Origin: Thermobifida alba
Lineage (GTDB): Bacteria > Actinomycetota > Actinomycetes > Streptosporangiales > Streptosporangiaceae
Assembly: GCF_023208015.1 (NCBI RefSeq)
Contig: NZ_CP051627.1
Span: forward strand, 3,452,422-3,516,421
Direction: 5' to 3'
DNA: 64,000 nucleotides
Each line of letters begins with the position of its first letter. The first letter of the stretch is position 1. Positions 13,001-39,775 of the stretch are shown here, one piece after another. The position numbers and the translations under genes were made by a program. A model generated the notes under the pieces. It was not told where the DNA came from. It saw only the letters and a program-made list of their open reading frames with translations, and ran no database searches.

Positions 13001-16000
13001 CAACGGCACCGGACCCGACACCGCCCCGCCGTCCACCCCACCCCCGGCAGCCTCCTCAACCACCGCCACCTCGGCCAACGCCGCCACACACTGCCGCGCG
13101 AACACATCCCGCGACGTCACCACCACACCCTCACGCCGCGCCCGCGCCACCACCTGCAAACTCAGAATCGAATCCCCGCCCAACGCGAAGAAGTTGTCGT
13201 ACACACCAACCCGATCCACCCCCAACACCACCGCGAACACCTCCGCCAACACCCGCTCCACCCCACTACGCGGAGCCACATACTCATCGGTGTCCCGGAC
13301 GTCGGGGGCGGGCAGGGCGGAGCGGTCCACCTTGCCGTTGGCGTTGAGCGGCATCGCGTCGAGGCGGACGAGCACCGAGGGGACCAGGTAGTCGGGCAGC
13401 CTGCCCGCGAGCGCGGCGCGGACGGCTTCGACGTCGGCGTCGGCGCCGACGAGGTAGCCGACGAGTTGGCGCACACCGGTCCCGGGCTCGTGGACCACCA
13501 CGACGGCCTCGTCCACTTCCGGCACCGCCAGCAGCGCGGCCTCGATCTCCCCGGGTTCGACGCGGAACCCGCGGATCTTGAGCTGGTCGTCGGCGCGGCC
13601 GGCGAACTCCAGCTCGCCGTCGGCGTTCCACCGCACCAGGTCCCCGGTCCGGTAGAGCCGCCCACCCGAGGAGAACGGATCCGCCACGAACCGCGACGCG
13701 GTCAGCCCCGGACGACCGTGGTACCCACGCGCCACCCCGGCACCACCCACATACAGCTCACCGACCACCCCCACGGGCACCGGACGCAGAAAACCGTCCA
13801 GCACGTAGACCCGGGTGCCGTCCAGGGGTCCGCCGATCGGCGGCGGCTCCGGGACCCCGCCGCCCCGCGGCAGCGTCGCGGTGGTGGCGTACGTCGTCGT
13901 CTCGGTGGGGCCGTAGACGTTGACCAGGTCCAGGTCCGGGCATGCCCGCGACACCCGTTCCAGGGCCGCCCGGTTGGCGGCCTCCCCTCCGGTCAGCACC
14001 TCGCGCAGCCCCGCGAAGCAGGTCGGCTCCTGGTGGGCGAACAGGTTGAACAGCGAGGTCGTCAGGAACACGCCGGTCACTCCGTGGCGGGCGACCTGGT
14101 CGGCGAAGCCCTCGGGGTCGAGGGTGCCGGGCGGGGCGACGGCCACGGTCCCGCCGGTCAGCAGCGGCGTCCAGATCTCGTAGGTCGCGGCGTCGAACGC
14201 GTGCGAGGAGTGGAACAGGACCCGGTCGTGCGCTCCGCCGCGCCAGCGGTGGTCGCTGGCGAGCGCGGTGATGTCCCCGTGGGTGACGGCCACTCCCTTG
14301 GGGGTGCCGGTGGAGCCGGAGGTGAACATCACGTAGGCGAGGTGGTGCGGCGTGACGGCGGGCAGGTCGGAGCCGTCGGGGAGCGTCTTCTCCCCGACGG
14401 GCCGTCCGGCGCGGTCCAGTGTCAGGACCGGGACGTCCACCTCTGCGGTGACGTGGGCGGAGGCCGCGTCGGTGAGCACGCACGCCGCACCGGTGTCCTC
14501 GACCAGCCAGCGCACCCGCGAGGCGGGGTCGCCCGCGTGTGCGGGGACGTAGGCGCCTCCGGCGCGGAGGACCGCGAGCATCGCCACCACGACGTGGGCG
14601 CCGCGCTCCAGGGCCAGGACGACCGGCGTCTCCACGTCCACGCCCTGGCCGCGTAGCAGTCGGGCCAGCCGGTCGGTGCGGGCGTCGAGTTCGGCGTAGC
14701 TGAGGGCGCCGCCGTCCCAGACCAGGGCGGGCGCGTCGGGCCGTTCGGCGACCTGCGCGGCGAACAGGTCGGTGACCGTGGCCGGGGGTGCGGCCGGGGT
14801 GTCGCCCGCCCAGCGCAGCAGGGTGTCGCGCGCGGCGTCGTCGCTCGGGTCCAGCGCCGCGATCCGCAGGTCGGGGTCGGCCGTCGCGGCGTCGACGATC
14901 CTGTCGAACGCGGCGACGAGCGCCTCGATGCGTTCGGGCCGGTACAGGGCGGTGCTGTACTCGACGGTGAGCCGCAGTCCGCCGTCGCGCTCCTCGAACT
15001 CGAAGACGAGGTCGAAGAGGGCGGAGCGGCGCGGAAGGTCGACGGCGTGGACGTCGAGGCCGGGGAGGTCGAGGTCGCCGGAGTGGGCGTTCTGCAGCAC
15101 CACCAGTGCCTGGAAGAGGGGGGTGCGCGAGGGGTCGCGTTCGTCGACGAGCCGCTCCACCAGCAGGTCGAAGGGCACCTCGTGGGCGAAGGCGTCGAGC
15201 ACGGTGCGGCGGATGTCGGCCAGGAAGGACCGCACCGTCGCCGACCGTTCGGGGGCCGTGCGGATCACCAGCGGGTTGACGAAGAATCCGACGACGTCGT
15301 CGAGCCGGTGGTGGTCGCGTCCGGAGGCCGCGATGCCCAGCGCGACGTCCCGGCTGCCCGAGGCGGCGACGAGCAGCAGGTGGACCAGCGCGGTCAGCGT
15401 CATGAACAGGGTGGCGTCCTCGTTGCGGCCCAGGCGCCGCAGCGCGTCGGTCGCCGCTGGGGAGAGCACGTGCCGGTGGACTGCTCCGGCCGTGGACCGG
15501 ATCTCGGGGCGCGGGTGGTCGGTGGGCAGCTCCAGCACCGGGGGGTCGGCCAGGTGCCGCGACCAGTGGTCGAGGCGCCGGCGGGTCTCGGGAGTGTCGC
15601 GGCGGTCCTGCTCCCAGACGGCGAAGTCGAGGTAGCGCAGTCGCGGTTCGGGCAGCGTGCCGCCGTCGCCGTCGACCCTGCTCCGGTAGAGGGCGGCCAG
15701 GTCGCGGTTGACGACGTCCACCGACCATCCGTCGCTGACGATGTGGTGCGAGCTCAGCACGAGGACGTGCTCGTGTGCGTCCATGCGGACCAGCAGCGCC
15801 CGGAACAGCGGTCCGCGGGCGAGGTCGAAGGGCTGCTGCGTCTCGGCTTCGAGCAGGCGGGCCAGTTCCCGGTCGCGTTCGTGCGCGGGCCGGTCGGACA
15901 GGTCTTCCTCGGTGAGGAGGTCGGCGGCCTCGGGGACGGGGGTGATCCGCTGCAGGGGGTGTCCGTCGACGTCGTCGAAGACGGTCCGCAGCGATGCGTG

Positions 16001-26264: not shown

Positions 26265-26828
26265 TCAGCCCGGGGTGACCAGGCGCTGCACGCCCGGCGC
26301 GTACAGCTCCACGAGCCGCTCGGCGTCGGCCGTGCGGCCGGTGGCCCGGTAGTGGATGTTGAGGGTGGCGCCCAGGCCGAGCAGGTGGGCGACGACCAGC
26401 TCCGCGCGCAGGCGGACGTCGGGGCCGCGCAGGCGGGCCGCCACCGCGTCGGTGACCTGGGTGTGGAAGTACTCCCGCACCACGGCGCGCTCGTCCTGGA
26501 CGGAACTGGAGAAGACCGCGCGCAGCAGCGGGTCGGCCCCGTTGCGCTCGCGCAGGTCGAGCAGGGTGCGGACCATGTGCTCGCCGAGCCGCTCCAGGGG
26601 CGCGTCCAGCAGTAGTTCCGCGGCCTTCGCGAAGTCCGCGGAGGCGCGCAGCAGCCGCTCCTTGGTACCGAAGTGCTTGATGACCAGGGCTGCGCTGACG
26701 CCCGCGTCGGCCGCGATGGCGCGGATCGTTACCTCGGCGTAGGGGCGCAGCGCGAAGGCGCGGCGTGCCGCCAGCAGGATCGCCGGACGGCTCGACTCGG
26801 CTGTCTGCTGGCCGCTGCTGTGATTCAC
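26265..26828 (-). CDS. TetR-family transcriptional regulator.
   Basis: N-terminal TetR HTH (ILLAARRAFALRPYAEVTIRAIAADAGVSAALVIKHFGTKERLL). Immediately downstream of and co-oriented with MFS gene 26842..28278. Confidence 0.9.
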   Translation of the reverse strand: MNHSSGQQTAESSRPAILLAARRAFALRPYAEVTIRAIAADAGVSAALVIKHFGTKERLLRASADFAKAAELLLDAPLERLGEHMVRTLLDLRERNGADPLLRAVFSSSVQDERAVVREYFHTQVTDAVAARLRGPDVRLRAELVVAHLLGLGATLNIHYRATGRTADAERLVELYAPGVQRLVTPG

Positions 26829-26841
26829 CCGTGGCTCCCGG

Positions 26842-28278
26842 TCACGACTGCTGGGGGTTCTTCTGTATACCGGAACCGGGCCCGAGGTCGCGCACCGGCA
26901 GGGTGACCACCAGGGCGCCCAGTGCCACGCAGCCCGCGAGGAAGAAGGTCGTGAGGTAGGCCCCGAAGGTGGGCGCGGTGCCGCCGTCGACCTCCATCGT
27001 CATCCCGGCGAAGACGGCGGCCACGACGGCGCTGCAGATCGCCTGTCCCACGGCCCGCATGAGGACGTTGACGCCGTTGGCCGCGCCGGTCTGCGCCCGG
27101 GGCACGTGCTGCATGAGCAGGGCGGGCAGCGTGGAGTAGGGAAAGGCCGTGCCGATGCCCACGATCGCGGCCCCCACGATGATCATGCCCAGGCTCTCGC
27201 TGGTGAACAGCCGCAGCACGTAGCCGACGACCATCAGCGCGAGGCCGAACACGATGGGGGCCTTGGGTCCCCGTGAGGCGGCGATCCGCGCGGCGACCGG
27301 GGAGAACAGCAGCATGGTGATGGAGGCGGGCAGCATGCACAGTCCTCCGGCGACGACGGAGAGCCCCAGGCCGTAGCCGGTCTCGGTGGATTCCTGCACC
27401 AGTTGGGAGGTGACCAGGGAGTTGACGAAGAAGGAGAACCCGATCAGCAGGGTGGCGAGGTTGGTCAGCAGCACGGCGGGATTGGCCATGCTGCTCAGTT
27501 CCACGATGGGGTCGGCGACGCGTGTCTCGTGGCGGACCCAGACCGCGCCGACGGCCAGGGACACGGCGAACAGGCCGAGGACCGCCGGGGAGGTCCACCC
27601 CCACTCCGTTCCCCGCGACACCGCCGCCAGGAAGCAGACCAGGACGACGGTGAGCCCGAGGGTGCCCGCGGCGTCGAAGCGGCCGCCGGTGCGCGTCTCC
27701 GCCCGGGGGACGAAGGCCAGCACCAGCGTCAGGGCGAGCAGGCCGAGCCCGCCGCTCATCCAGAACACCGCGTGCCAGTCGGCGTAGCGGGCGATCAGCG
27801 AGGTCAGCGGGACGCCGACGGCCGCGCCGACGCCCATCGTGGTGCTCATCAGCGCCGCCGAGGAGGCCACCCGGGCGGGGGGCAGCACGTCGCGGAGGAT
27901 GCCGATGCCCAGCGGCACCACTGCCAACGCGACCCCCTGGAGGGTGCGTCCGGCCACCAGGAGCAGGATGTGCGTGCTGAGGGCGGCCAGCAGGGAGCCC
28001 GCGACGAGGCAGAGGAGCGCGGCCACCAGCACCTCGCGTCTGCCGTACATGTCGCCGAGGCGTCCCAGGACGGGGGTGGACACGGCTCCGGCGATCAGCG
28101 AGGCGGTGACCACCCAGCTCACCGCCTCGTGGGTGGTGTCCAGGGCCTCGATGAGGGTGGGCACCAGCGGCACCGCGAGGGTCTGCATGACCGCGGTGAC
28201 CACTCCGGCGAAGGCCATCGCGGTGAGGAGGAGGCGGGGGCGGCGGATGGGGGCGGGGCTGGCGGAAGCTTCGGTCAC
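26842..28278 (-). CDS. MFS drug:H+ antiporter, DHA2 (14-TMS, EmrB/QacA-like). Start assigned to GTG at 28276-28278 with GGGAG upstream. The track ORF extends to a TTG at 28326.
   Basis: Track ORF. MFS signature GRLGDMYGRREV, 14 hydrophobic segments. 66% identical to the paralog 28397..29803. Confidence 0.85.
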   Translation of the reverse strand: MTEASASPAPIRRPRLLLTAMAFAGVVTAVMQTLAVPLVPTLIEALDTTHEAVSWVVTASLIAGAVSTPVLGRLGDMYGRREVLVAALLCLVAGSLLAALSTHILLLVAGRTLQGVALAVVPLGIGILRDVLPPARVASSAALMSTTMGVGAAVGVPLTSLIARYADWHAVFWMSGGLGLLALTLVLAFVPRAETRTGGRFDAAGTLGLTVVLVCFLAAVSRGTEWGWTSPAVLGLFAVSLAVGAVWVRHETRVADPIVELSSMANPAVLLTNLATLLIGFSFFVNSLVTSQLVQESTETGYGLGLSVVAGGLCMLPASITMLLFSPVAARIAASRGPKAPIVFGLALMVVGYVLRLFTSESLGMIIVGAAIVGIGTAFPYSTLPALLMQHVPRAQTGAANGVNVLMRAVGQAICSAVVAAVFAGMTMEVDGGTAPTFGAYLTTFFLAGCVALGALVVTLPVRDLGPGSGIQKNPQQS

Positions 28279-28313
28279 GCGGGCTCCCTTCGGCCTCGGA
28301 GGACCATGTCGAA

Positions 28314-28339
28314 CTGGGGTAAACAAGTGTTCACCCCAG
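28314..28339. promoter_or_regulatory. Operator-like inverted repeat CTGGGGTAAACAAGTGTTCACCCCAG upstream of MFS gene 1 (candidate TetR site).
   Basis: Half-sites GGGGTAAACA / GGGGTGAACA (9/10) with extended CTGGGG..CCCCAG arms. 36-60 bp upstream of the start. Near-identical motif at 29841..29866. Confidence 0.6.
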
Positions 28340-28396
28340 TGGATCCTAGTCGCCCCCGATCGGCGGCCGCCGTCGAGGCCCGGTCCGGCCGCCGCG

Positions 28397-29803
28397 TCAC
28401 GGCGCGGGGCGGGACCGCTCGGGCACGCACTGCACGGCGGCCGCCCCGGCCAGCGCCAGGACCCCGGACAGGGCGAAGACCAGCAGGTACGCCTCGAAGG
28501 CGGGCGCGGTCACACCGCCGGCGTCCACCGTCACGCCCGCCAGCACGGTGGCCACGACCGCGCTGCAGACCGCTTGACCCGCGGCCCGCAGCAGGAAGTT
28601 GACGCCGTTGGCCGCCCCGGTCCGCCCCCGTGGGACGTGCCGCATGAGCAGGGTGGGCAGCGCCGCGTAGGAGACGGCGCCGCCGATGCCGACCACCGTG
28701 GCCCCCGCGACGATCATGGCCAGGCTCTCGCTGGTGAACAGCCGCACCAGGAAGCCGACCGCGATGACCAGCGCGCCGAGCACGGTGGTGGACCGGGGGC
28801 CGAGGGCCGTCGACAGCCACGCCGCGACCGGGGAGAACACCAGCATCGTGATCCCCGCGGGCAGCAGGGTCAGGCTGCCGGCGAAGACGGAGAGCCCCAG
28901 GCCGTAGCCGGTCTCGGGGGGCTCCTGCACCAGTTGGGAGGTGGCCAGGGAGTTGGCGAGGGTGGTGAAGCCGAGCAGCAGGGTGGCGAGGTTGGTCAGC
29001 AGCACGGCCGGACTGGCCATGACCCGCAGCTCCACGATGGGGTCGGCGACGCGCGTCTCGTGGCGGGCCCAGACCGCGCCGACGGCCAGGGACACGGCGA
29101 ACAGGCCGAGGACCGCCGGGGAGGTCCACCCCCACGTGGTCCCCTGGGTCACCGCGAGCAGGAGGCAGACCAGGACGACGGTGAGGCCGAGGGTGCCGAG
29201 GAGGTCGAGGCGGCCGCCGGTCCGCGCCTCCGCCCGGGGAACGGAGGCGGACACCAGCACGGCGCAGAGCAGGCCGAGCGCCCCGCAGCCCCAGAACACC
29301 GCGTGCCAGTCGGCGTACTGGGCGACCAGGGCGGACAGGGGGACTCCGACGGTCGCTCCGATCCCGACCGTGGCGCTCATCAGTCCCACCGCGGCCGCCA
29401 CCCGCTCGGGCGGCAGCACGTCGCGCAGGACGCTGATGCCCAGCGGCACCACCGCCACCGCGGCCCCCTGCAGCGCCCGGCCGGCGACGAGGGCGAGGAC
29501 GTGGGAGCTGAGCGCGCACAGCAGGCAGCCGGCCACCAGGATGGCCAGGGCGGACAGCAGCATCCGGCGTTTGCCGTACAGGTCGCCGAGCCGTCCGAGC
29601 ACCGGGGTGGCGACGGCTCCGACGACCAGGGTGGCGGTGACCGCCCAGCTCACCGTCTCCGGAGTGCTGTCGACCAGGTCGGGGAGGTGGGGCAGGAGCG
29701 GGACGGTGACGGTCTGGACGGCCGCGGTGAGCACTCCTCCGCAGGCCAGCGCGGCGACGAGCAGCCGGGGACGGCGACTGGGCACGGGGACCGCCTCGGG
29801 CAC
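28397..29803 (-). CDS. MFS drug:H+ antiporter, DHA2 family. Tandem paralog of 26842..28278.
   Basis: Track ORF. Near-identical TM topology and motifs (GRLGDLYGKRRM, WGWTSPAVLGLFAVSLAVGAVW shared verbatim with the paralog). Confidence 0.85.
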   Translation of the reverse strand: MPEAVPVPSRRPRLLVAALACGGVLTAAVQTVTVPLLPHLPDLVDSTPETVSWAVTATLVVGAVATPVLGRLGDLYGKRRMLLSALAILVAGCLLCALSSHVLALVAGRALQGAAVAVVPLGISVLRDVLPPERVAAAVGLMSATVGIGATVGVPLSALVAQYADWHAVFWGCGALGLLCAVLVSASVPRAEARTGGRLDLLGTLGLTVVLVCLLLAVTQGTTWGWTSPAVLGLFAVSLAVGAVWARHETRVADPIVELRVMASPAVLLTNLATLLLGFTTLANSLATSQLVQEPPETGYGLGLSVFAGSLTLLPAGITMLVFSPVAAWLSTALGPRSTTVLGALVIAVGFLVRLFTSESLAMIVAGATVVGIGGAVSYAALPTLLMRHVPRGRTGAANGVNFLLRAAGQAVCSAVVATVLAGVTVDAGGVTAPAFEAYLLVFALSGVLALAGAAAVQCVPERSRPAP

Positions 29804-29840
29804 GGGGACTCCCCTCGGTCGGGAGGACGGCAGTGAACCA

Positions 29841-29866
29841 ACGGGGTAAACAACTGTTCACCCCGT
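29841..29866. promoter_or_regulatory. Second copy of the MFS operator-like palindrome ACGGGGTAAACAACTGTTCACCCCGT.
   Basis: Same GGGGTAAACA-NN-TGTTCACCCC core as 28314..28339. ~38 bp upstream of the second MFS start. Confidence 0.6.
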
Positions 29867-30210
29867 TGTGTACACCATCACCCCGCGTTTGACGACCCTT
29901 TTCGCCCCAATTCGTCACCGGATGAGCATCCGAACAACTTTTCTTGGGATTTCTGGCGCTCACCGGGAACCGGAGCCTCCCCCGAAGCGTCCCAACCATC
30001 GCAAGACCGCCACCGCGGCCGACGCGGTGGCGATCGCGGGCGCGCACTATCGTCCGGTCCGGCACGACAGCGCCGGACCGGACGATGACCGGTTGTGGAC
30101 AGTGCCATTGCCCTCCCCTGGCTCCCCGGCTAGGTTCCGGCACAGCGGTTCCACTCACCGCCTCGTCCCGCGGAACCGTGACACGCGGAGAGGGGTTGCG
30201 GCAGACCGGC

Positions 30211-30852
30211 ATGAGCGACTTCTTCACGGCCGCCCTCGGGTTTCCCACCGCCCTGTTCAGCTTCGCCCTGATCGTGGTCGTCGGCTACTGGTGCCTCGTC
30301 GTCCTCGGCGTGCTCGGGATCGACACGCTCGACGCCGACGCCGACTCCGACGTGGGCGGTCTCACGGAAGCCATGTCCGCCATCGGTCTCAGAGGAGTCC
30401 CGGTCACCGTGTCGCTCTCCGTCATGATCGCCGTGGCGTGGTTCGCCTCCCTCAGCGGCTCCGCCCTCCTGGACGGCGTCGACCTGTCCGACCCGATGAC
30501 CATCGCGCTGGGGGTCGTCGTCCTCGCCCTCGCCGTGGTCTGCGCCTGGGCCGCGGCCAGTTTCTTCGCCCTGCTGTGGCGGCGCTTCCTGCCGGGCGGC
30601 CGCGAACCCTCCCGGCACGACTTCGTCGGACGGGTCTGCGTGGTCCGCACCGGACGCGTGGGCACCGACTTCGGCCAGGCCGAGGTCACCGCCGCCGACG
30701 GCTCCACCGCGCTCATCCAGGTACGGCAGACCGGCGAGGAGGCCCTCACCTCCGGCAGCACCGCGCTGATCGTCGACCACGATCCCGACGGCTCCTTCTT
30801 CTGGGTCACCGCCTACCACGCCGAACTCGACCCGAACCGCCCGACCCCCTGA
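30211..30852 (+). CDS. NfeD/YqiJ-like (DUF1449) membrane protein with C-terminal OB-fold. Partner of the flotillin gene.
   Basis: Three TM helices (MSDFFTAALGFPTALFSFALIVVVGYWCLVVLGVLGI...). C-terminal NfeD-like β-barrel region (GRVCVVRTGRVGTDFGQAEVTAADGSTALIQVRQ...STALIVDHDPDGSFFWV). ATG at 30211, in frame with track ORF 29944..30852. Confidence 0.75.
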   Translation: MSDFFTAALGFPTALFSFALIVVVGYWCLVVLGVLGIDTLDADADSDVGGLTEAMSAIGLRGVPVTVSLSVMIAVAWFASLSGSALLDGVDLSDPMTIALGVVVLALAVVCAWAAASFFALLWRRFLPGGREPSRHDFVGRVCVVRTGRVGTDFGQAEVTAADGSTALIQVRQTGEEALTSGSTALIVDHDPDGSFFWVTAYHAELDPNRPTP

Positions 30853-30953
30853 CCGCCGCGGCCGCCGCCTCCGGTGCCCGGCGGTCGGCCGCCTACCGCC
30901 GCCCTGCCCGCGGCCCGCCCGAGACTCCGAACACCCGACCCTAGGAACCGCCT

Positions 30954-33047
30954 ATGGACACCATCGCCGCAGGGGCCGGCGTACTCGTCGCTGTCCTCCT
31001 CCTCGTCCTGATCGGACTGCTCATCGTCATCAGCCGCCTGTTCCGCAAGGTGGAGCAGGGCAAGGCGCTGATCATCTCCAAGATCCGCAAGGTCGACGTC
31101 ACCTTCACCGGCGCGGTCGTGCTGCCCGTGCTGCACAAGGCTGAGGTCATGGACATCTCGGTGAAGACCATCGAGATCTCCCGCACCGGCAAGGAAGGCC
31201 TCATCTGCCGGGACAACATCCGCGCCGACATCCGCATCACGTTCTTCGTGCGGGTCAACAAGACCGTCGAGGACGTCATCAAGGTCGCCCAGGCCATCGG
31301 CACCGAACGCGCCAGCGACCAGGCCACCCTCCAGGAGCTGTTCAACGCGAAGTTCTCCGAGGCGCTCAAGACCGTCGGCAAGCACCTGGACTTCGAGGAC
31401 CTCTACACCCAGCGCGCGGAGTTCCGCGACCAGATCATCAGCGTCATCGGCACCGACCTCAACGGCTACAGCCTGGAGGACGTGGCGATCGACTACCTGG
31501 AGCAGACCCCGCTGGTCCAGCTCGACCCGGCCAACATCCTCGACGCCCAGGGCATCCGCAAGATCACCGAGCTGACCGCGCAGCAGAACGTCAGCACCAA
31601 CGAGCACCGCCGCAACGAGGAGAAGGAGATCGAGCGCCAGAACGTCGAGGCGCGCGAGACCATCCTCGAACTGGAGCGCCGCCGCGAGGAGGCCGAGGCC
31701 AAGCAGAAGCGCGAAGTCGAGTCGCTGCGCGCGCAGACCGAGGCCGAGACCGAGATCGTGCGCGCCGAGGAGATGCTGCGCGCCGAGACCGCCCGCATCC
31801 GCGCCGAACAGGAACTGGGCGTGCAGCGGGAGAACCGGGAGCGCGAGATCGCGGTGGCGGCGAAGAACCGCGAACGGGTCATCGCCGTGGAGAGCGAGCG
31901 CATCGAGAAGGACCGCCTGCTGGAGGTCATCGCCCGGGAGCGCGAGACCGAGCTGTCGCGCTACGCCAAGGACAAGGAGCTGGAGGCCGAGCGGCGCGAG
32001 ATCGCCGAGGTCGTCCGCGAACGCGTGGCCGTGGAGAAGACCGTCGCCGAGCAGGAGGAGAGCATCAAGAGGCTGCGCGCGGTCGAGGAGGCCGAGCGCC
32101 AGCGCCAGTCCGCGGTCATCCTCGCCGAGGGCGCGGCCCAGGAGCAGCTGGTCAAGGACATCAAGGCCGCCGAGGCCGCGGCGCAGGCCGCCGAGCACGC
32201 CGCCCGCGAACAGCTCACCCTCGCCGAGGCGCGCCAGCAGGCCGCCGAACTGGACGCCGCCGCCAGCATCCGCCTGGCCGAGGGCAAGCAGGCCGAAGCC
32301 GCCGCCGAGGGGCTGGCCCGGGTGCAGGTCAGCGAACGCGAGGCCGAGGTCCTGGAGAAGACGGGCCGCGCCGAGGCGGTCGTCGCCCGCGAGAAGGCGC
32401 TCGCCCAGGCCGAGGAGGTCGAGAAGGTCGGTCTCGCGCAGGCCGCCGCCGACCGGCAGCGGGCCCTCGCCGAGGCCGAGGCCGTCCGCGAGAAGCTCAA
32501 GGCCGAGGCCGAGGGCATCCACGACAAGGCCGAGGCGATGGCCGCGCTGGACGAAGCCACCCGCGAGCACGAGGAGTACCGCCTGCGCCTGGAGGCCGAC
32601 AAGGAGGTCCGCCTCGCCGGGATCGAGGCGCAGCGCCAGATCGCCGCGGCCCAGGCCGACGTGCTCGGCAAGGGCCTGGAGAGCGCCGACATCGACATCG
32701 TCGGCGGCGACGGGGCGTTCTTCGACCGCGTCGTCAACGCAGTCGGCGCGGGCAAGGCCGTGGACGGCTTCCTGGAGCACTCCCAGGCCGCCCGCACCCT
32801 CGCCGGGCCGTGGCTGGACGGCTCCCGCGACCTGCCCTCCGACCTGACCAGGATGCTGGGCGCGGTCGACTCCGCCGACGTCAAGAACCTCACCCTGTCG
32901 GCGCTGCTGCTCAAGCTGATCAACGAGGGCGGCCCCCAGGCCTCCGGCCTGTCCAGCCTGCTGAAGTCGGCCCGGAAGCTGGGCCTGGCCGACACGCCGC
33001 TGTCCGAACTCGCCTCCGCCGCGCCGACCCCGTCGAAGCAGCTGTGA
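30954..33047 (+). CDS. Flotillin-like SPFH/band-7 protein (YqiK/FloT family), 697 aa, with a long Ala/Glu/Arg-rich coiled-coil region.
   Basis: N-terminal TM anchor, then SPFH domain (ISKIRKVDVTFTGAVVLPVLHKAEVMDISVKTIEISRTGKEGLICRDNIRADIRITFFVRV...). Extended EA-repeat helical region. 100 bp downstream of the NfeD-like gene. Confidence 0.9.
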   Translation: MDTIAAGAGVLVAVLLLVLIGLLIVISRLFRKVEQGKALIISKIRKVDVTFTGAVVLPVLHKAEVMDISVKTIEISRTGKEGLICRDNIRADIRITFFVRVNKTVEDVIKVAQAIGTERASDQATLQELFNAKFSEALKTVGKHLDFEDLYTQRAEFRDQIISVIGTDLNGYSLEDVAIDYLEQTPLVQLDPANILDAQGIRKITELTAQQNVSTNEHRRNEEKEIERQNVEARETILELERRREEAEAKQKREVESLRAQTEAETEIVRAEEMLRAETARIRAEQELGVQRENREREIAVAAKNRERVIAVESERIEKDRLLEVIARERETELSRYAKDKELEAERREIAEVVRERVAVEKTVAEQEESIKRLRAVEEAERQRQSAVILAEGAAQEQLVKDIKAAEAAAQAAEHAAREQLTLAEARQQAAELDAAASIRLAEGKQAEAAAEGLARVQVSEREAEVLEKTGRAEAVVAREKALAQAEEVEKVGLAQAAADRQRALAEAEAVREKLKAEAEGIHDKAEAMAALDEATREHEEYRLRLEADKEVRLAGIEAQRQIAAAQADVLGKGLESADIDIVGGDGAFFDRVVNAVGAGKAVDGFLEHSQAARTLAGPWLDGSRDLPSDLTRMLGAVDSADVKNLTLSALLLKLINEGGPQASGLSSLLKSARKLGLADTPLSELASAAPTPSKQL

Positions 33048-33054
33048 GGACTGT

Positions 33055-36000
33055 GTGACCGACCTCGTCACCACCGCTTCCGACGACGACCGGGCCGGGC
33101 TCGACATGGGCACCTACGAGGTGCTCCGGGCCCGGCTGGGCGAACAGGCCGCCGAGCTGGCGCGGCGCGCCGAAGCCCTCAACGCCGCACGGCTGGAGGT
33201 CTTCGGCGGCACCGAGCTGCGCCTGCTCGGCACCGAGCGCGTGCGCACCGCCAACCACTGCGTGCCGCGCGACATCGTGCCCGTCGGCGACCTGATGCTG
33301 TTCGGCTACAACGTCTTCATCGGCATGAAGACCGAGACGCACGTGGCCGACGTGTTCTCCCTGCACCGCTTCGACTCCGCCGACGGGGCCCTCTCCTTCA
33401 CCGAGGCGCAGGCGGGCGAACTGCCGGAACTGCTGGAGGACGAGCGGTTCCGGCGGGACTTCGCGGAACTGTACCGGTACTTCCGCGACACGCGGCTGCT
33501 GCAGCTGCGGCGCGTCGAGGGCCGCCTGCTCGCGGTGTTCCAGACCGGCCCCTCCGTCTCCGACATCCGGGTGCTGCGCTGGCGGATCGGCGCCGACGGC
33601 TCCCTGTCCTACCTGGACAACAAGGGCGAACGGGACCACGTCTTCCCCCCGCAGCAGGACTTCACCTGGATCGAGACCACCCGCGACGACCACGTGCCGG
33701 GCCGCCACCCGCACATCTCCATCGACGACGAGGTGTTCGTGGAGACGGTCGGCGGCGACCTGACCGTCAAGGTCGAGAACAACACGGAGAGCGGCGAGGG
33801 CGTCTACAGCGAACCGGTCGCCGAACCGCTGCAGAGCCTCGCCGACGCCGACGTGCGCTACGCCCGGGTCGGACCGCTCATCCTGCTGCGCATCCTGCCG
33901 TACAAGGAGACCGAGTACCGGCACCTGGTGTTCAACACCCGCACCCGGGACGTGGTCCGCCTCGACGGCATCGGACAGGCCTGCCAGCGGCTCCCCGACG
34001 ACCAGGGCCTGATCTTCCCCGGCGGCTACTACCTGTCCACGGGCACGGTCAAGACCTTCGACACCGACGTCACCGACCTGGAGTTCCAGGCGCTGGTCCG
34101 CTCCCCCAACGGCGAGGACGTGCTCTACGTCTTCCACTCCCGGGCGGAGGGCCGCAGCCTGCTGCTGCCCTACAACGTGATCCGCAAGGAGGTCGCCACC
34201 CCCCTCTCCTGCCACGGCTACTCGATCTTCGACGACGGCGTCATGGTGGTGTTCCGCGCCCTGTCGGACGAACCCACCCGGGTCCATCCGATGCAGGTGT
34301 GGCAGACGCCGTTCCAGTCCGACGCGTACGCGGCCCGCCAGCCCGCCGGGACCGGGCCGCTGGAGCGGGTCGGCAACGCCGACCTGGTGCGCGGCGTCTC
34401 CGACGCGCTGTCGGTGGCCCGCATGGTGCACGAGATGACCCCGTCCGCGCCGGTGTTCGAAGGGCTGATCGCCGCCTGCACGCGCGCCCTCGACCAGTAC
34501 CACTGGCTGGACGACCCGGACCTGCACGACCTGGCGGAGCCGCTCAGGCAGGTGCGCTCCACCGCCGAGCAGGTGCTGGAGGAGTTCGAGAAGGTCCAGG
34601 AGCTCACCGCGCAGGCCGCCCGCGCGCTGGACGAGGCGGAGGCCGACGCCGCTGCCCTGGTGCGCCGGGTCCGCTCCGAGACGCCCGCCTCCGCCGACGA
34701 GTGGGTGCGCCGCCTCGCCGAACTGCGCCGCGCCCGCGGCCACCTGGAAACCCTGCGCGACCTGCGGTACGTCGACACCGCGCGGCTGGACTCCCTCGTC
34801 TCCTCCCTGGAGGCCGACACCGCCGACGCGGGACGGCGCGCCGTGGAGTTCCTCAGCGGCGCGGACGCGTTCACCAGCTACCACGCCGCGGTGGACGCCC
34901 TGGTCGGCGAGGCCGAGGCCATCGAGACCGTCGCCGCTGCCGAACCGGTCCGGCAGCGCCTGGCCGAGCAGACCGAGGGCTTGGAGACCGTCACCGAGGT
35001 CGTCGGCTCCCTCGACATCGCCGACGCGACCGTGCGCACCCGCATCCTGGAGCGGGTCGCCGAGGTGCTGGGCACCGTCAACCGGGCGCGCGCCACCCTG
35101 GACGCGCGCCGCCGCGAACTGCTGTCCGTGGAGGGGCGGGCCGCGTTCGCCGCCGAGTTCGCGCTGCTGGGGCAGTCCGTGGCCGGCGCGCTGGCGATGG
35201 CCGACACGCCCGAGGCGTGCGACGAGCAGCTGGGGACCCTGCTGCTGCAGGTGGAGAACCTGGAGTCGCGGTTCGCGGAGTTCGACGACTTCCTCGCCGA
35301 GCTGGAGGCCAAACGCGAGGACGTCTACGAGGCGTTCAGCGCACGCAAGCAGGCCCTGCTGGACGAGCGGACCCGGCGCGCCGACCGGCTCGCCGAGTCC
35401 GCCGAGCGCATCCTGGCCAGTGTGCGCCGCCGCGCCGCCGCCCTCGGCTCCCTCGACGAGGTCAACACCTACTTCGCCGCCGACGCGATGGTGGCCAAGC
35501 TCCGCTCCCTCGCCGAGGAGCTGCGCGGCCTCGGCGACCAGGTGCGCGCCGAGGAGGTCGAGGGGCAGGTCAAGGCGGCCCGCCAGGAAGCCGGCCGGGC
35601 GCTGCGCGACCGCCTCGACCTGTTCACCGACGGCGGCGAGACGATCCGGCTGGGCCACCACCGGTTCGCCGTCAACACCCAGCCCCTGGACCTGACGATG
35701 GTGCCGCACGAGGAGCGCATGGCGTTCACCGTCACCGGCACCGACTACCGGTCCCCGGTGGCCGACCCCGGCTTCGCGGAGACCCGGCCGTTCTGGGACC
35801 AGCCGCTGGTCTCGGAGTCGCCCGAGGTGTACCGGGCCGAGTACCTGGCCGGGGAGATCCTCGCCGCCGCCGAGGCGGGACGGGACGGGCTGTCCACGGC
35901 CGCGCTGCGGCAGGCCGCGGAGAGCCCCGACGGGCTGCTGTCCGTGGCGCGCCGGGAAGCGGAGTCCCGCTACGACGAGGGCTACGAGCGCGGCGTGCAC

Positions 36001-38028
36001 GACCACGACGCCGCCGCGATCCTGGCCGCGCTGCTGCGCCTGTCCGAGGACGCGGGACTGCTGCGCTACCCGGGGGCCGCGCGCGCCACGGCCCAGCTGT
36101 TCTGGGCGTTCGGCACCGAGGAGGCGGACCGGCGGACGTGGGCGACGCGGGCCCGCTCCCTGGTGCGGGCGCGGTCGGTGTTCGGGCCGGGGGCCGCCGG
36201 CGCGGTCGCGGAGCTCGCCGGGGAGCTCGCGGCGCGCATCACTGCGTTCCTCGACGCCAACGCGCTGGCCGACCACCGCGACCGCGCCGCGGCCGCGGGC
36301 GAGTACCTGGTGGAGGAGCTGGCCGCCGACGACGGCGGGTTCGCGGTGAGCGCCGGGGCGCGCGCGTTCGTCGACCGGTTCCTGCGCGGCCTGGGACCGT
36401 CCGGTTCGGCCGAGCGCCGCGCGTTCACCGACGACCTGGCCGCCCTCGGAGCGGACCTGGCGGCCCGCCACCAGCTGGCGGACGCGTGGCTGACCGCGTT
36501 CCGCGCCACCCGCGACGACGTGGCCGCCGCCGACCAGCCCGAGGCGGTCGCGCTGCTGCTCGCCGACGGCCTGGACCGCTACGAGCCGCCGGGGGCGCTC
36601 ACCGCGACGGTCGACGGCCTGCTGGGCGCACACCCGCGCGTCCGGGAGCGGCGGCTGGAGCTGCGCCTGGACGAGACGTGGGAGCGGCTGCGCCGCTTCC
36701 GCACCGAACGGGTCCCCGCCTACCGCGCCTACCTGCGGCGGCGCAACGAGCTGGTGGCGGCCGAGCGCGCCCGGCTGCGCCTGGACGAGTACCACCCCCG
36801 GGTGCTCAGCTCGTTCGTGCGCAACCAGCTGCTGGACGAGGTGTACCTGCCGCTGATCGGCGACAACCTCGCCAAGCAGCTGGGCGCGACCGGCGACGGC
36901 AAGCGCACCGACCAGATGGGGCTGCTGCTGCTCATCTCCCCGCCCGGCTACGGCAAGACCACGCTCATGGAGTACGTGGCCAGCCGGCTGGGCCTGCTGT
37001 TCGTGAAGGTGAACGGCCCGTCGCTGGGGCACGCGGTGACCTCGCTGGACCCGGAGGAGGCGCCCAACGCCACCGCGCGCCAGGAGGTCGAGAAGATCTC
37101 CTTCGCGTTGGAGGCGGGCAACAACGTGCTGCTGTACCTGGACGACATCCAGCACACCTCGCCGGAGCTGCTGCAGAAGTTCGTCTCGCTGTGCGACGGC
37201 CAGCGCCGCATGGAGGGCGTGTGGGGCGGCCGCACCCGCACCTACGACCTGCGCGGCAAGCGGTTCGCGGTGTGCATGGCCGGCAACCCCTACACCGAGG
37301 AGGGCAAGCGGTTCCGCATCCCCGACATGCTCGCCAACCGCGCCGACGTGTGGAACCTCGGCGACGTGCTCAGCGGCCGGGACGACCTGTTCGCGCTGAG
37401 CTACGTGGAGAACGCGCTGACCGCCAACCCGGTGCTGGCGCCGCTGTCCACCCGGGACCGCGGCGACGTGCGGCTGCTGGTGCGGATGGCCCGCGGCGAG
37501 GAGGGGATCCAGGCCGACCAGCTGTCCCACCCCTACTCGGCGGTGGAGCTGGACCAGGTCCTGTCGGTGCTGCGCAAGCTGCTGCGGGTACAGGAGGTGG
37601 TGCTGGCCGCGAACCGCGCCTACATCGCCTCGGCCGCGCAGTCGGACGCCGCGCGCACCGAACCGCCGTTCCTGCTCCAGGGCTCCTACCGGAACATGAA
37701 CGCGATGGCGGAGCGGATCGTGCCGGTGATGAACGACGCCGAGGTGGAGTCGCTGATCGACGACCACTACCTGGGCGAGGCGCAGACGCTGGCGTCGGGC
37801 GCGGAGGCCAACCTGCTGAAGCTGGCCGAGCTGCGCGGGCGGATGTCGGAGGAGCAGCGGGCCCGCTGGGCCGAGGTGAAGGCGGCGTTCCGGCGGGCCC
37901 GGGCGCTGGGCGGCGCCGAGGACGATCCGCTGGTCCGGGCCGTGGGCGCGGTCGGCCTGCTCGCCGACCGGGTGGGCGCGGTGGAGGAGGCCATCGACCG
38001 CGCGGCCCGGCGGTTCGGCCCCGGGTGA
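33055..38028 (+). CDS. Giant (1657 aa) protein: ~1250-aa mostly helical N-terminal region of unknown function plus a C-terminal MoxR/AAA_5-type ATPase domain. Third gene of the NfeD-flotillin operon.
   Basis: GTG start 7 bp after the flotillin stop with GAGGA RBS. Walker A LLLISPPGYGKTTLMEYV (~36940-36990), Walker B NVLLYLDDIQH, AAA_5-like sensor/arginine region FAVCMAGNPYTEEGKRFRIPDMLANRADVWNL. No other recognisable domain by eye. Confidence 0.85.
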   Translation: MTDLVTTASDDDRAGLDMGTYEVLRARLGEQAAELARRAEALNAARLEVFGGTELRLLGTERVRTANHCVPRDIVPVGDLMLFGYNVFIGMKTETHVADVFSLHRFDSADGALSFTEAQAGELPELLEDERFRRDFAELYRYFRDTRLLQLRRVEGRLLAVFQTGPSVSDIRVLRWRIGADGSLSYLDNKGERDHVFPPQQDFTWIETTRDDHVPGRHPHISIDDEVFVETVGGDLTVKVENNTESGEGVYSEPVAEPLQSLADADVRYARVGPLILLRILPYKETEYRHLVFNTRTRDVVRLDGIGQACQRLPDDQGLIFPGGYYLSTGTVKTFDTDVTDLEFQALVRSPNGEDVLYVFHSRAEGRSLLLPYNVIRKEVATPLSCHGYSIFDDGVMVVFRALSDEPTRVHPMQVWQTPFQSDAYAARQPAGTGPLERVGNADLVRGVSDALSVARMVHEMTPSAPVFEGLIAACTRALDQYHWLDDPDLHDLAEPLRQVRSTAEQVLEEFEKVQELTAQAARALDEAEADAAALVRRVRSETPASADEWVRRLAELRRARGHLETLRDLRYVDTARLDSLVSSLEADTADAGRRAVEFLSGADAFTSYHAAVDALVGEAEAIETVAAAEPVRQRLAEQTEGLETVTEVVGSLDIADATVRTRILERVAEVLGTVNRARATLDARRRELLSVEGRAAFAAEFALLGQSVAGALAMADTPEACDEQLGTLLLQVENLESRFAEFDDFLAELEAKREDVYEAFSARKQALLDERTRRADRLAESAERILASVRRRAAALGSLDEVNTYFAADAMVAKLRSLAEELRGLGDQVRAEEVEGQVKAARQEAGRALRDRLDLFTDGGETIRLGHHRFAVNTQPLDLTMVPHEERMAFTVTGTDYRSPVADPGFAETRPFWDQPLVSESPEVYRAEYLAGEILAAAEAGRDGLSTAALRQAAESPDGLLSVARREAESRYDEGYERGVHDHDAAAILAALLRLSEDAGLLRYPGAARATAQLFWAFGTEEADRRTWATRARSLVRARSVFGPGAAGAVAELAGELAARITAFLDANALADHRDRAAAAGEYLVEELAADDGGFAVSAGARAFVDRFLRGLGPSGSAERRAFTDDLAALGADLAARHQLADAWLTAFRATRDDVAAADQPEAVALLLADGLDRYEPPGALTATVDGLLGAHPRVRERRLELRLDETWERLRRFRTERVPAYRAYLRRRNELVAAERARLRLDEYHPRVLSSFVRNQLLDEVYLPLIGDNLAKQLGATGDGKRTDQMGLLLLISPPGYGKTTLMEYVASRLGLLFVKVNGPSLGHAVTSLDPEEAPNATARQEVEKISFALEAGNNVLLYLDDIQHTSPELLQKFVSLCDGQRRMEGVWGGRTRTYDLRGKRFAVCMAGNPYTEEGKRFRIPDMLANRADVWNLGDVLSGRDDLFALSYVENALTANPVLAPLSTRDRGDVRLLVRMARGEEGIQADQLSHPYSAVELDQVLSVLRKLLRVQEVVLAANRAYIASAAQSDAARTEPPFLLQGSYRNMNAMAERIVPVMNDAEVESLIDDHYLGEAQTLASGAEANLLKLAELRGRMSEEQRARWAEVKAAFRRARALGGAEDDPLVRAVGAVGLLADRVGAVEEAIDRAARRFGPG

Positions 38029-38043
38029 GCGGGAGACGTCGGT

Positions 38044-38097
38044 GATCATGCCCCCAGCGCCAGAATCGGCCGTGCCGATGGCCCTGGGGGCATGATC
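38044..38097. terminator. Bidirectional terminator-like hairpin between convergent genes (14-bp stem GATCATGCCCCCAG / CTGGGGGCATGATC, 26-nt loop).
   Basis: Perfect inverted repeat read directly from the sequence. Sits in the 88-bp gap between the giant ATPase gene (+) and the monooxygenase gene (-). Confidence 0.55.
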
Positions 38098-38116
38098 GTC
38101 AATTCTCCGGGGCGGG

Positions 38117-39775
<1,659 letters not shown>

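Follow-up and report, generated by a model that had tools for sequence, protein, structure and literature searches.

A YqiJ-like protein, a flotillin and a DUF3686-family AAA+ ATPase form a conserved gene trio in Thermobifida alba, a candidate membrane-stress module

Results

Gene layout and flanks of the trio

In the 64-kb stretch of Thermobifida alba DNA that was analysed as a whole (the window), three co-directional genes, g1, g2 and g3, lie on the plus strand and encode products of 213, 697 and 1657 residues. The GC3 frame plot supports exactly these frames, which an earlier note on this DNA had also proposed.

30046..30086, plus strand: 5' hairpin ahead of g1, within the 407 nt that separate the divergent genes (RNA fold -37.5 kcal/mol, z = -4.9, 0/200 shuffles as stable)
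30211..30852, plus strand: g1, putative YqiJ/YuaF-like (NfeD2 class) membrane protein (GC3 frame plot, homologue N-termini, hydropathy, hhalign)
30954..33047, plus strand: g2, YqiK-type flotillin (BLASTP, composition, hydropathy)
33046..33050, plus strand: ribosome-binding site GAGGA, overlapping the g2 stop and 4 nt 5' of the g3 GTG start (direct sequence reading)
33055..38028, plus strand: g3, DUF3686-family AAA+ ATPase, predicted cytoplasmic (translation, Pfam, hydropathy)
38041..38100, no strand assigned: 3' hairpin, long and GC-rich, between g3 and the rifampin monooxygenase gene converging on it (RNA fold -53.8 kcal/mol, z = -4.8, 0/200 shuffles as stable)

The gap between g1 and g2 is 101 nt (previously given as 100 bp) and that between g2 and g3 is 7 nt, as reported. 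This short gap, together with a Shine-Dalgarno sequence lying over the g2 stop, suggests that g2 and g3 are translationally coupled. The trio is a self-contained unit, in line with the earlier reading, with MFS pump genes on the minus strand diverging from it on the 5' side of g1 and a rifampin monooxygenase gene on the minus strand converging on it on the 3' side of g3; its neighbours within the window are efflux pumps and oxidoreductases. The further claim that hairpin terminators flank the locus stands only as regards the presence of a stable hairpin on each side. Because the genes on both sides of the 5' hairpin diverge from it, it is not a terminator; it may have a regulatory role or belong to the 5' leader. 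The 3' hairpin is probably a bidirectional terminator that lacks a T-tract; a scan for consensus T-tract terminators found nothing at the flanks of the trio, and neither hairpin contains such a tract.

A YqiJ-like membrane protein and a flotillin

The g1 product has three hydrophobic segments by hydropathy (residues 4-41, 57-87 and 89-124) and a C-terminal soluble domain of about 90 residues, and the N-termini of 17 homologues fit a start at 30211. By hhalign it matches E. coli YqiJ over 125 colinear columns with a probability of 61% (E = 8e-5). Among actinobacterial loci, about 70 of 77 have the gene upstream of g2, as do 45 of 49 metagenomic ones. Taken together, the profile match, the three hydrophobic segments and the gene order argue with moderate strength for the NfeD/YqiJ-like membrane protein suggested earlier. 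Pfam does not contribute to this assignment, as no model matched even at E = 10 and those for NfeD and DUF1449 were not reached; nor was there a PDB sequence match.

The second gene encodes an SPFH/flotillin, as had been recognised: BLASTP aligns it with E. coli YqiK at E = 2e-38, with 29% identity over 450 residues including the SPFH domain, and the product matches 'flotillin family protein [Thermobifida alba]' at 100% identity. No Pfam model matched g2 even at E = 10, and PF01145 is present in about half of its ~70%-identical homologues. Its parts are the following.

Residues 1-34: N-terminal membrane anchor, the only one in g2 (hydropathy)
31059-31553, plus strand (residues ~36-200): SPFH domain
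31554-32663, plus strand (residues ~201-570): coiled coil rich in E, A, R, K and Q (composition)
32664-33044, plus strand: C-terminal flotillin tail

Domain architecture of g3

33220..34305, plus strand (residues ~56-417): beta-propeller inside DUF3686 (predicted structure)
34615..35613, plus strand (residues ~521-853): helical stalk with helices of up to 58 residues, holding DUF7902 (AlphaFold secondary structure)
35773..36564, plus strand (residues ~907-1170): unannotated alpha-helical domain (model pLDDT ~90)
36916..38025, plus strand: AAA+ module and C-terminal helices (Pfam, Foldseek, hhalign)
36937-36963, plus strand (residues 1295-1303): Walker A SPPGYGKTT, with lysine K1301
37135-37155, plus strand (residues 1361-1367): Walker B YLDDIQH, with an invariant D-D, not D-E
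37213-37230, plus strand: pre-sensor-1 beta-hairpin with a conserved EGVWGG tip
37273-37290, plus strand: sensor 1, N1411
37315-37353, plus strand: candidate arginine finger R1429
37678-37701, plus strand: conserved QGSYRNMN motif

The roughly 1250 N-terminal residues of g3, described in the earlier note as helical or coiled-coil without any motif, turn out to contain two Pfam matches, PF12458 (DUF3686) at residues 34-483 (nt 33154-34503, E = 2e-219) and PF25472 (DUF7902) at residues 604-688 (nt 34864-35118, E = 1e-30). Both are domains of unknown function, and no family of known function was found over the N-terminus. The AlphaFold model of residues 1-520 is beta-rich (pLDDT 87, pTM 0.86) and its structural matches are beta-propellers; we model the N-terminal region as a propeller, with a 41-residue N-terminal helix (residues 10-50) before it and further helices (residues 423-519) after it. 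Beta-propellers are typical binding platforms. The helical domain at residues ~907-1170, which has no Pfam or PDB match, carries a near-invariant EGYExGVHDHDA motif (GVHDHDA at residues 980-986, nt 35992-36012), conserved in 28 members from several phyla, and most of residues 850-1250, this motif included, could provide a separate activity. Hydropathy analysis detected no hydrophobic segment in g3.

The ATPase motifs quoted earlier, SPPGYGKTT, YLDDIQH and CMAGNP...RIPDMLANRADVW (the last at residues 1407-1433), are all found in the translation. Judged by its model, the C-terminal module is a genuine AAA+ fold with a predicted beta-hairpin before sensor 1, and it is the most conserved part of g3, with 80-90% column identity across phyla. 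Its description as a MoxR/AAA_5-type ATPase and as the sole recognisable module could not be upheld, given the two additional Pfam domains and the profile comparisons. Pfam assigns it 27.8 bits for AAA and 22.0 bits, exactly the cut-off, for AAA_5. The hhalign probabilities are 95.8% for RuvB, in an alignment confined to the generic AAA+ core (43 columns; in a second comparison, the P-loop region only), 90% for ClpX and 87% for Lon, as against 7% for the MoxR protein RavA. By Foldseek, RuvB (2e-5) and NorQ (3e-5) are about equal, with CbbQ, MCM and dynein also found. The module thus scores nearer to RuvB, ClpX and Lon than to MoxR and, a VWA-domain partner being absent as well, we rejected a specific MoxR/AAA_5 assignment. 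A classical aromatic pore loop was not seen when the sequence was read by eye, and the invariant D-D Walker B may indicate slow, switch-like hydrolysis, not that of a processive unfoldase.

Conservation of the trio and its link to PspA

In every one of the 77 actinobacterial loci for which upstream DNA is present, g3 is immediately preceded by a g2 homologue; this also holds for 53 of 56 diverse metagenomic loci, at 43-72% identity to g3. Neighbourhood conservation, proposed earlier as a check, thus shows the trio to be kept as a unit, and the three exceptions (L100, L106 and L130) imply that g3 does not strictly require a flotillin gene next to it. Simiduia and Psychrobacter, by which the Gammaproteobacteria are also represented, have the same trio, as do Deinococcus and the megaplasmid pQBR103. 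Homologues of g3 at 63-88% identity are found across actinobacterial orders, and the g3 family comprises 1412 clusters at 50% identity (E <= 1e-3); no conserved fourth gene was found in 64 actinobacterial loci. Sequence identity rises and falls together in the three genes (g2 vs g3, r = 0.96, n = 139), a pattern for which co-inheritance alone would suffice. As a membrane module the trio is real, and several bacterial phyla share it.

A DUF2170 (CesT/Tir) and PspA gene pair is located directly upstream of g1 in 11 of 43 metagenomic loci (about a quarter) and in Simiduia. In locus L169 the pair is adjacent to the trio and divergent from it, and on pQBR103 a PspA gene precedes the trio in the same gene row, accompanied by yjf-type and polyamine genes. 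No pspA gene was found within the window. The same operon has already been described by comparative genomics and tied to the PspA membrane-stress system by Ravi et al. 2024 (mSystems 9:e00847-23, PMC11237479), who proposed that it acts in membrane dynamics, in a chaperone-like way or as an ESCRT analogue, and found the three-gene 'abbreviated' form to be widely distributed. Our literature search found no experimental study of any family member; the system is thus experimentally uncharacterised, as the earlier note had it, and is not new.

Discussion

Proposed function and alternatives

We propose, with about as much doubt as belief, that the operon is a membrane-stress or remodelling module working on the cytoplasmic side of the membrane, with g3 remodelling flotillin- or PspA-type assemblies. 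The flotillin and the YqiJ-like protein would assemble into an SPFH scaffold or cage at the membrane's inner face, while soluble g3 would form a ring via its AAA+ domain, its long helical stalks carrying the beta-propellers at their ends as binding heads. In such an arrangement, g3 would spend ATP on building, reshaping or taking apart the flotillin scaffold and/or recruited PspA (ESCRT-III-like) polymers, in a manner likened to that of Vps4 on ESCRT-III or of FtsH inside the HflK/C cage. T. alba has the abbreviated operon, which carries no pspA of its own. The layout of the genes and of their protein domains, the tight linkage of the three genes in different phyla and the repeated association with PspA are demonstrated; g3 oligomerisation, physical contact among the three products, the substrate and the physiological trigger are what we infer. 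The B. subtilis SPFH protein YdjI is described as bringing PspA to the membrane, and according to a 2025 review (PMC7619361) bacteria appear to be without a Vps4-like ATPase for PspA.

One could also imagine that the flotillin/YqiJ platform gathers damaged or unassembled membrane proteins, and that g3 would then use ATP to unfold them, extract them or chaperone their assembly, by analogy with FtsH-HflK/C minus the protease or with a MoxR-like maturation factor. Partnership between an SPFH cage and an AAA+ machine is described for HflK/C-FtsH, and S. aureus FloA-NfeD is reported to stabilise unfolded proteins (PMC11222466); to the eye, the sensor-1 stretch NPYTEEG...IPDMLANRAD of g3 looks like the MoxR/chelatase pattern, NorQ and CbbQ are among the best Foldseek matches, and the g3 homologue in L130 adjoins an M48 (HtpX-like) membrane protease. 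We nevertheless consider this explanation unlikely, since the operon has no conserved protease, VWA or client gene, RavA reaches only 7%, and both the D-D Walker B and the lack of any evident aromatic pore loop speak against processive unfolding.

The resemblance to phage defence raised in the earlier note, in which the ATPase would sense infection and the flotillin/YqiJ pair would act at the membrane in anti-phage or abortive infection, fared considerably worse, and we consider it very improbable. Large NTPases with coiled coils and propellers are common in defence systems, one trio (L086) has two Dam-like methyltransferases and a phage-related gene in its vicinity, one copy is on pQBR103, and IS200-type transposase genes are nearby in L083 and L169. 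However, PADLOC returned only P-loop-level or coiled-coil noise for g3 (IetA 1.9e-4 over 29 residues, LmuB 3e-4) and nothing for g1 and g2, and homologues occur in 0 of 50,697 phage genomes and 0 of 2.9 million viral contigs; the copies in 13 of 72,556 plasmid records are mostly on megaplasmids or mislabelled chromosomes. The identity across actinobacterial orders broadly follows taxonomy, which suggests vertical inheritance and not the patchy turnover of defence islands. It is PspA and polyamine genes that recur beside the trio, not defence genes, and the window neighbours are pumps and oxidoreductases.

That g3 is a DNA repair ATPase with the flotillin genes as mere neighbours, as the title of PF12458 ('ATPase involved in DNA repair'), the NCBI family name ('DNA repair ATPase') and the rank of RuvB as best sequence-profile and structural match of the AAA+ module might suggest, is hardly credible, given that the RuvB likeness is confined to the generic core, that g3 shows no sign of a DNA-binding, nuclease or SMC/Rad50-type domain, that it is almost always in an operon with two membrane proteins and often PspA too, that no conserved repair genes are nearby, and that our literature search found no paper with DUF3686/PF12458 or with 'DNA repair ATPase' paired with flotillin or SPFH.

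Comparison with known systems

E. coli YqiJ-YqiK and B. subtilis YuaF-FloT are NfeD2-SPFH2 pairs (Hinderhofer et al. 2009, PMC2636767), to which the first two genes correspond: g2 is homologous to YqiK, g1 resembles YqiJ, and the small membrane protein comes first in both. The E. coli locus differs in having no downstream ATPase gene; g2, moreover, is longer than YqiK (697 vs 553 residues), and g1 falls below the Pfam NfeD and DUF1449 models. With HflK/C-FtsH the likeness would be one of functional analogy, an SPFH scaffold paired at the membrane with an AAA+ machine, whereas g3 has neither protease domain nor membrane anchor, is predicted to be cytoplasmic with a propeller and stalk, and has a flotillin, not HflK/C, as its SPFH partner.

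The remodelling role proposed for g3 would be similar to that of Vps4 on ESCRT-III, and in a subset of loci g3 is genetically coupled to the gene for PspA, a member of the ESCRT-III superfamily. Yet g3 is not a Vps4 homologue, as it lacks an MIT domain and its top matches lie outside the classical clade, nor is it an enhancer-binding protein like PspF, the AAA+ partner of PspA, and its constant partner is the flotillin, not PspA. The MoxR family (RavA-ViaA, NorQ-NorD, CbbQ-CbbO) shares with g3 the sensor-1 and Foldseek likenesses given above, to which the AAA_5 score at the cut-off may be added, but g3, in addition to its low RavA probability and missing VWA partner, is about five times larger, and the secondary structure of its model shows no beta-hairpin insert between strand 2 and helix 2.

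The closest counterpart is the operon of Ravi et al. 2024 (CesT/Tir-PspA-YqiJ/YuaF-band-7/flotillin-(beta-propeller+coiled-coil+AAA+)), whose five-gene full form we recovered in Simiduia and the 11 metagenomic loci, and with which the T. alba trio agrees in products, order and domain architecture, being its abbreviated form without pspA in the window and no different in kind. To that description we add the identification of the ATPase as Pfam DUF3686 plus DUF7902, confident structure models, linkage counts, the invariant D-D Walker B, the GVHDHD motif, and an AAA+ module that by score is nearer to RuvB/ClpX/Lon than to MoxR.

Layout of the operon and its flanks

The GC content of the window is about 73%, so that long open reading frames crowd every frame. 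A plot of the GC content at codon positions (GC3 plot) singles out three plus-strand genes: g1, encoding a YqiJ-like membrane protein, g2, encoding a flotillin, and g3, encoding a giant AAA+ ATPase. They are listed here with their neighbours and with two long antisense frames.

Features of the operon and its flanks, in window coordinates
26265-26828, minus strand, TetR-family regulator gene, start of a cluster (26265-29803) divergent from the operon
26842-28326, minus strand, DHA2-type MFS efflux pump gene, first of a tandem pair, upstream of g1
28397-29803, minus strand, DHA2-type MFS efflux pump gene, second of the tandem pair, upstream of g1
30211-30852, plus strand, g1, 213 aa, from the GC3 frame plot
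30954-33047, plus strand, g2, 697 aa, from the GC3 frame plot
33055-38028, plus strand, g3, 1657 aa, GTG start, from the GC3 frame plot
38117-39622, minus strand, rifampin monooxygenase (Rox) gene, NCBIfam NF033145 at 890 bits (cut-off 800 bits)
30813-33113, minus strand, antisense ORF to g2, 766 aa, a shadow ORF unsupported by the GC3 plot
32920-38049, minus strand, antisense ORF to g3, 1709 aa, a shadow ORF unsupported by the GC3 plot

The plot thus bears out the three co-directional genes proposed in the earlier note, with intergenic gaps of 101 nt between g1 and g2 and 7 nt between g2 and g3. The g1 start at 30211 agrees with the N-termini of 17 homologues; one public gene call places it 33 nt further upstream. 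A GAGGA ribosome-binding site shares bases with the g2 stop codon and lies 4 nt ahead of the GTG of g3, which suggests that translation of the two genes may be coupled.

The operon had also been described as a self-contained unit, and its borders agree with this: it is enclosed by the MFS pump genes, which are divergent from it since they lie upstream on the minus strand, and by the convergent monooxygenase gene, with a YdiJ-like oxidase gene also downstream on the minus strand and convergent. The TetR/MFS cluster is not kept beside the three genes in other genomes, and the Rox gene and g3 share one intergenic hairpin. The hairpin terminators claimed for both flanks survive in part. Two stable hairpins are present, a strong one in the g3-monooxygenase intergenic region (-53.8 kcal/mol, z = -4.8) and a second in the 5' intergenic region of the operon (z = -4.9), but neither carries a T-tract, and a consensus terminator scan of the flanks found none. 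A sigma-70 promoter scan returned nothing meaningful and an Rfam search of 29000-39000 returned no family. An ECF/SigE-type-like GGAAC-N18-GTT lies directly 5' of the g1 start (30172-30197); we dropped it as regulatory evidence because just 4 actinobacterial loci out of 69 show such a motif. Conserved upstream sequences of their own are seen in Nocardiopsis, in Streptosporangium and in Saccharothrix.

Conservation and spread of the three genes

Homologues of g3 form 1412 clusters at 50% identity (E <= 1e-3), or 489 at E <= 1e-30, and range over Actinomycetota, Gammaproteobacteria, Bacteroidota and Deinococcota, with 63-88% identity to g3 in Streptosporangiales, Pseudonocardiales, Micromonosporales, Glycomycetales and Streptomyces. 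The trio, that is g1, g2 and g3 in this order, does recur across actinobacterial genomes: among 80 sampled loci, 77 of them with upstream DNA, g2 immediately precedes g3 in every one of the 77, and g1 precedes g2 in about 70. The genes that flank the operon in the window are not conserved across these loci, and clustering of the flanking ORFs yielded no fourth conserved gene. The sole extra was an antisense ORF within the g2 coiled coil, seemingly "conserved" in 27 loci, which we rejected as a high-GC shadow ORF.

The same order is found in the distant members from Simiduia, Psychrobacter and two metagenomes, and likewise in Deinococcus and on the P. fluorescens megaplasmid pQBR103. A sample of 80 diverse metagenomic loci includes 56 that could be tested for a neighbouring g2, and 53 of these have it beside g3; g1 occurs in 45 of 49. 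The flotillin is missing beside the g3 homologue at three metagenomic loci (L130, 4494-11822; L100; L106), and at L130 an AIM24-family gene and an M48 (HtpX-like) peptidase gene stand upstream of the g3 homologue in its stead. Identity levels of g1, g2 and g3 co-vary (r = 0.89-0.96), for which co-inheritance alone would suffice. The expectation of a conserved, uncharacterised membrane module was well placed, the trio being adjacent across phyla and the literature that we searched containing no experimental study of any family member.

Transposase genes were seen at two loci with g3 homologues. At L169 (6586-7904) the flotillin and ATPase genes are separated by a PhyH gene and a transposase gene of the IS200 type (Y1_Tnp), and at the Simiduia locus (13897-14589) a Y1_Tnp gene lies just downstream. 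The plasmid collection also contains chromosome-sized carriers of g3 homologues, from Proteus mirabilis (H6 and H7, about 4.08 Mb) and Nonomuraea (H1, 11.85 Mb), which are probably mislabelled chromosomes. Genetically tractable carriers are available in the P. fluorescens SBW25 megaplasmid pQBR103, Proteus mirabilis, Streptomyces and Deinococcus.

The flotillin and the membrane protein

The SPFH/flotillin label first given to g2 is confirmed by a BLASTP match to E. coli YqiK (E = 2e-38, 29% identity) that spans residues 11-452, covering the SPFH domain and the coiled coil, and g2 is 100% identical to the annotated Thermobifida alba flotillin. A single hydrophobic segment at residues 1-34 provides an N-terminal anchor; the SPFH domain is followed by a long coiled coil, with a 370-residue segment (201-570) that is 67% E/A/R/K/Q and a weak NCBIfam FloT match, and by a C-terminal tail. 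The protein itself has no Pfam match at E = 10, PF01145 included, and no PDB sequence match; PF01145 is carried by about half of its approximately 70%-identical homologues. Judged by homology and by this arrangement, g2 is a YqiK-type flotillin (SPFH2).

The NfeD/YqiJ label of g1 has moderate support on its YqiJ side. No Pfam match, to NfeD (PF01957), to DUF1449 or to any other family, was obtained for g1 even at E = 10 or for any of 18 homologues at E <= 1, and a PDB search with the profile of g1 homologues gave no match. The same profile aligns with E. coli YqiJ over 125 colinear columns (hhalign, 61% probability, E = 8e-5). In g1, three hydrophobic segments precede a soluble and conserved C-terminal domain, whose block VG..C.IRT....FGQAEV...G....VQVR has, by eye, a beta-rich appearance, and across loci the gene keeps its place immediately 5' of the SPFH gene. 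Given the colinear alignment, the three hydrophobic segments and the conserved C-terminal domain, "YqiJ-like" seems a reasonable, if only moderately supported, label.

Architecture of the giant ATPase

Every motif quoted for g3 in the earlier note was found in its translation. The description of its N-terminus as helical or coiled-coil and free of motifs has to be abandoned: in Pfam, residues 34-483 match PF12458 (DUF3686; 729 bits, E = 2e-219) and residues 604-688 match PF25472 (DUF7902; 106 bits, E = 1e-30), and weak AAA, AAA_22 and AAA_5 matches follow at residues ~1290-1416. The protein thus belongs to the DUF3686 family, showing PF12458 (N-terminal), PF25472 (central) and the AAA+ module (C-terminal) in succession, and members at 27-35% identity retain this full architecture. 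It contains no hydrophobic segment.

The structure of g3 was predicted in two parts. The AlphaFold model of residues 1-520, built from 28 sequences of several phyla, is confident (pLDDT 87, pTM 0.86) and runs from a 41-residue N-terminal helix through about seven groups of four strands (56-417) to further helices. Its top Foldseek matches are all beta-propellers (paraoxonase, Cdh1, Vps11, YncE), at E ~1e-5 and with TM-scores of only 0.2-0.37. The DUF3686 region is accordingly modelled as a beta-propeller and not as a featureless coiled coil. The model of residues 521-1657 packs less well (pLDDT 81, pTM 0.44) and contains, in order, a helical stalk whose longest helices reach 58 residues, a small beta element, an alpha-domain, well predicted at residues ~907-1170, a linker, the AAA+ core and C-terminal helices. 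Within this second model Foldseek found structural relatives for the AAA+ part only (RuvB, 2e-5; NorQ, 3e-5; CbbQ, MCM and dynein). A PDB search with the whole g3-family profile likewise hit the P-loop region alone, with no solved structure for any relative beyond it, nor for any member of the g3 family.

Of all parts of g3, the AAA+ module is conserved best across phyla. Its specific assignment as a MoxR/AAA_5-type ATPase was rejected on the basis of hhalign and Foldseek. In a clade comparison that is coarse, the templates being single E. coli sequences, the family profile scored 95.8% against RuvB, 90.0% against ClpX and 86.7% against Lon but 7.3% against RavA; with RuvB, ClpX and Lon so far ahead of RavA, the label loses its specific support, and by sequence profile the module is no closer to MoxR than to other AAA+ clades. 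The AAA_5 match reaches 22.0 bits, exactly its cut-off, and PF00004 reaches 27.8 bits. The model shows a pre-sensor-1 beta-hairpin (strands at fragment residues 865-878), its secondary-structure string gives no sign of another one between strand 2 and helix 2, and no VWA gene is conserved near the trio.

Two motifs stand out in the alignments. The Walker B motif YLDDIQH (37135-37155, residues 1361-1367) carries Asp-Asp instead of the usual Asp-Glu, and this pair is invariant among all 28 aligned family members, which come from several phyla; ATP hydrolysis may be slow or switch-like as a result. The near-invariant GVHDHDA (35992-36012, residues 980-986), within EGYExGVHDHDA, sits in a confidently modelled alpha-helical domain with no Pfam or PDB relative, and could form a metal-binding or catalytic site.

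Association with PspA and proposed function

In Simiduia and at 11 of 43 metagenomic loci, g1 is immediately preceded by a pair of genes encoding DUF2170 (CesT/Tir-like) and PspA, and at L169 the pair adjoins the trio in divergent orientation. On pQBR103 (NC_009444.1, 85112-97641) the trio closes a row of genes for PspA, a rhomboid, DUF2491, DUF350, DUF1190 and glutathionylspermidine synthase; this row ties it to a yjf-type polyamine/PspA cluster, and the host strain is genetically tractable.

The reading that we favour, to which we give about an even chance, is that the trio is a membrane-stress or remodelling module at the cytoplasmic face of the membrane, in which g3 remodels flotillin and/or PspA-type assemblies. 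The membrane protein and g2 would construct a flotillin scaffold, and g3, presumably assembled into an AAA+ ring that bears its propeller heads on stalks, would spend ATP on remodelling this scaffold, PspA-type polymers, or both. The architecture, the gene linkage and the PspA association are direct observations, to which this picture adds, as we infer them, the oligomerisation, contacts, substrate and trigger. According to a 2025 review (PMC7619361), the roles of PspA's band-7 partners are undetermined, and bacteria appear to be without a Vps4-like ATPase to drive the dynamics of PspA/ESCRT-III-like polymers. The trio bears on this apparent want and on the regulation of bacterial flotillin microdomains. 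Being a family of very large AAA+ ATPases of about 1,400 clusters, almost always beside a flotillin and frequently beside PspA, the g3 homologues are a plausible candidate for this open membrane-remodelling question. A bolder reading, to which we give rather less than an even chance, is that the DUF3686 ATPase is the missing energy source of bacterial membrane-scaffold dynamics: a ring whose stalk-borne propellers would take hold of flotillin cages, of PspA (ESCRT-III-like) polymers or of both and then disassemble or reset them, making it an independently arisen functional analogue of Vps4, with the GVHDHD domain perhaps adding a second catalytic or metal-binding activity.

Alternatively, the module could be directed at clients, as a chaperone or an extractor, which we think rather unlikely. 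Phage defence, which the architecture had initially called to mind, is improbable, as the defence, phage, viral contig and plasmid collections were all negative or nearly so: PADLOC-DB 2.0 was silent for g1, g2 and four flanking genes and gave for g3 only matches at the P-loop/coiled-coil level (E 1.9e-4 to 4e-3), the phage collection and the viral contig scan yielded no copies and the plasmid collection very few, identity broadly follows taxonomy, and the neighbours are membrane-stress and not defence genes. A role of g3 in DNA repair is very hard to credit and was rejected, since beyond the database title "DNA repair ATPase" and a generic AAA+ similarity to RuvB we found no DNA-related domain in g3, no repair gene conserved nearby and no supporting paper in the literature searched, where DUF3686 (PF12458) goes unmentioned and nothing backs the name; this NCBI label appears to be a database title only, and is unsupported and probably misleading.

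Comparison with the published operon

The operon, which the earlier note offered as a candidate uncharacterised system, is not new. It is already known, having been described computationally by Ravi et al. 2024 (PMC11237479; preprint 2020) as a CesT/Tir-PspA pair together with three genes, including a 3TM YqiJ/YuaF, and the supplement of that study shows the matching gene order in Dokdonia. The three genes of the window, their order and their architectures all agree with this description. The operon of the window differs from the full form in having no CesT/Tir-PspA pair: tblastn at E <= 1 found neither a PspA nor a DUF2170 homologue in the 64-kb window, which therefore carries the abbreviated form of the operon. 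Such PspA-less "abbreviated operons" are, according to Ravi et al. 2024, the more widely distributed, and might act with PspA encoded elsewhere.
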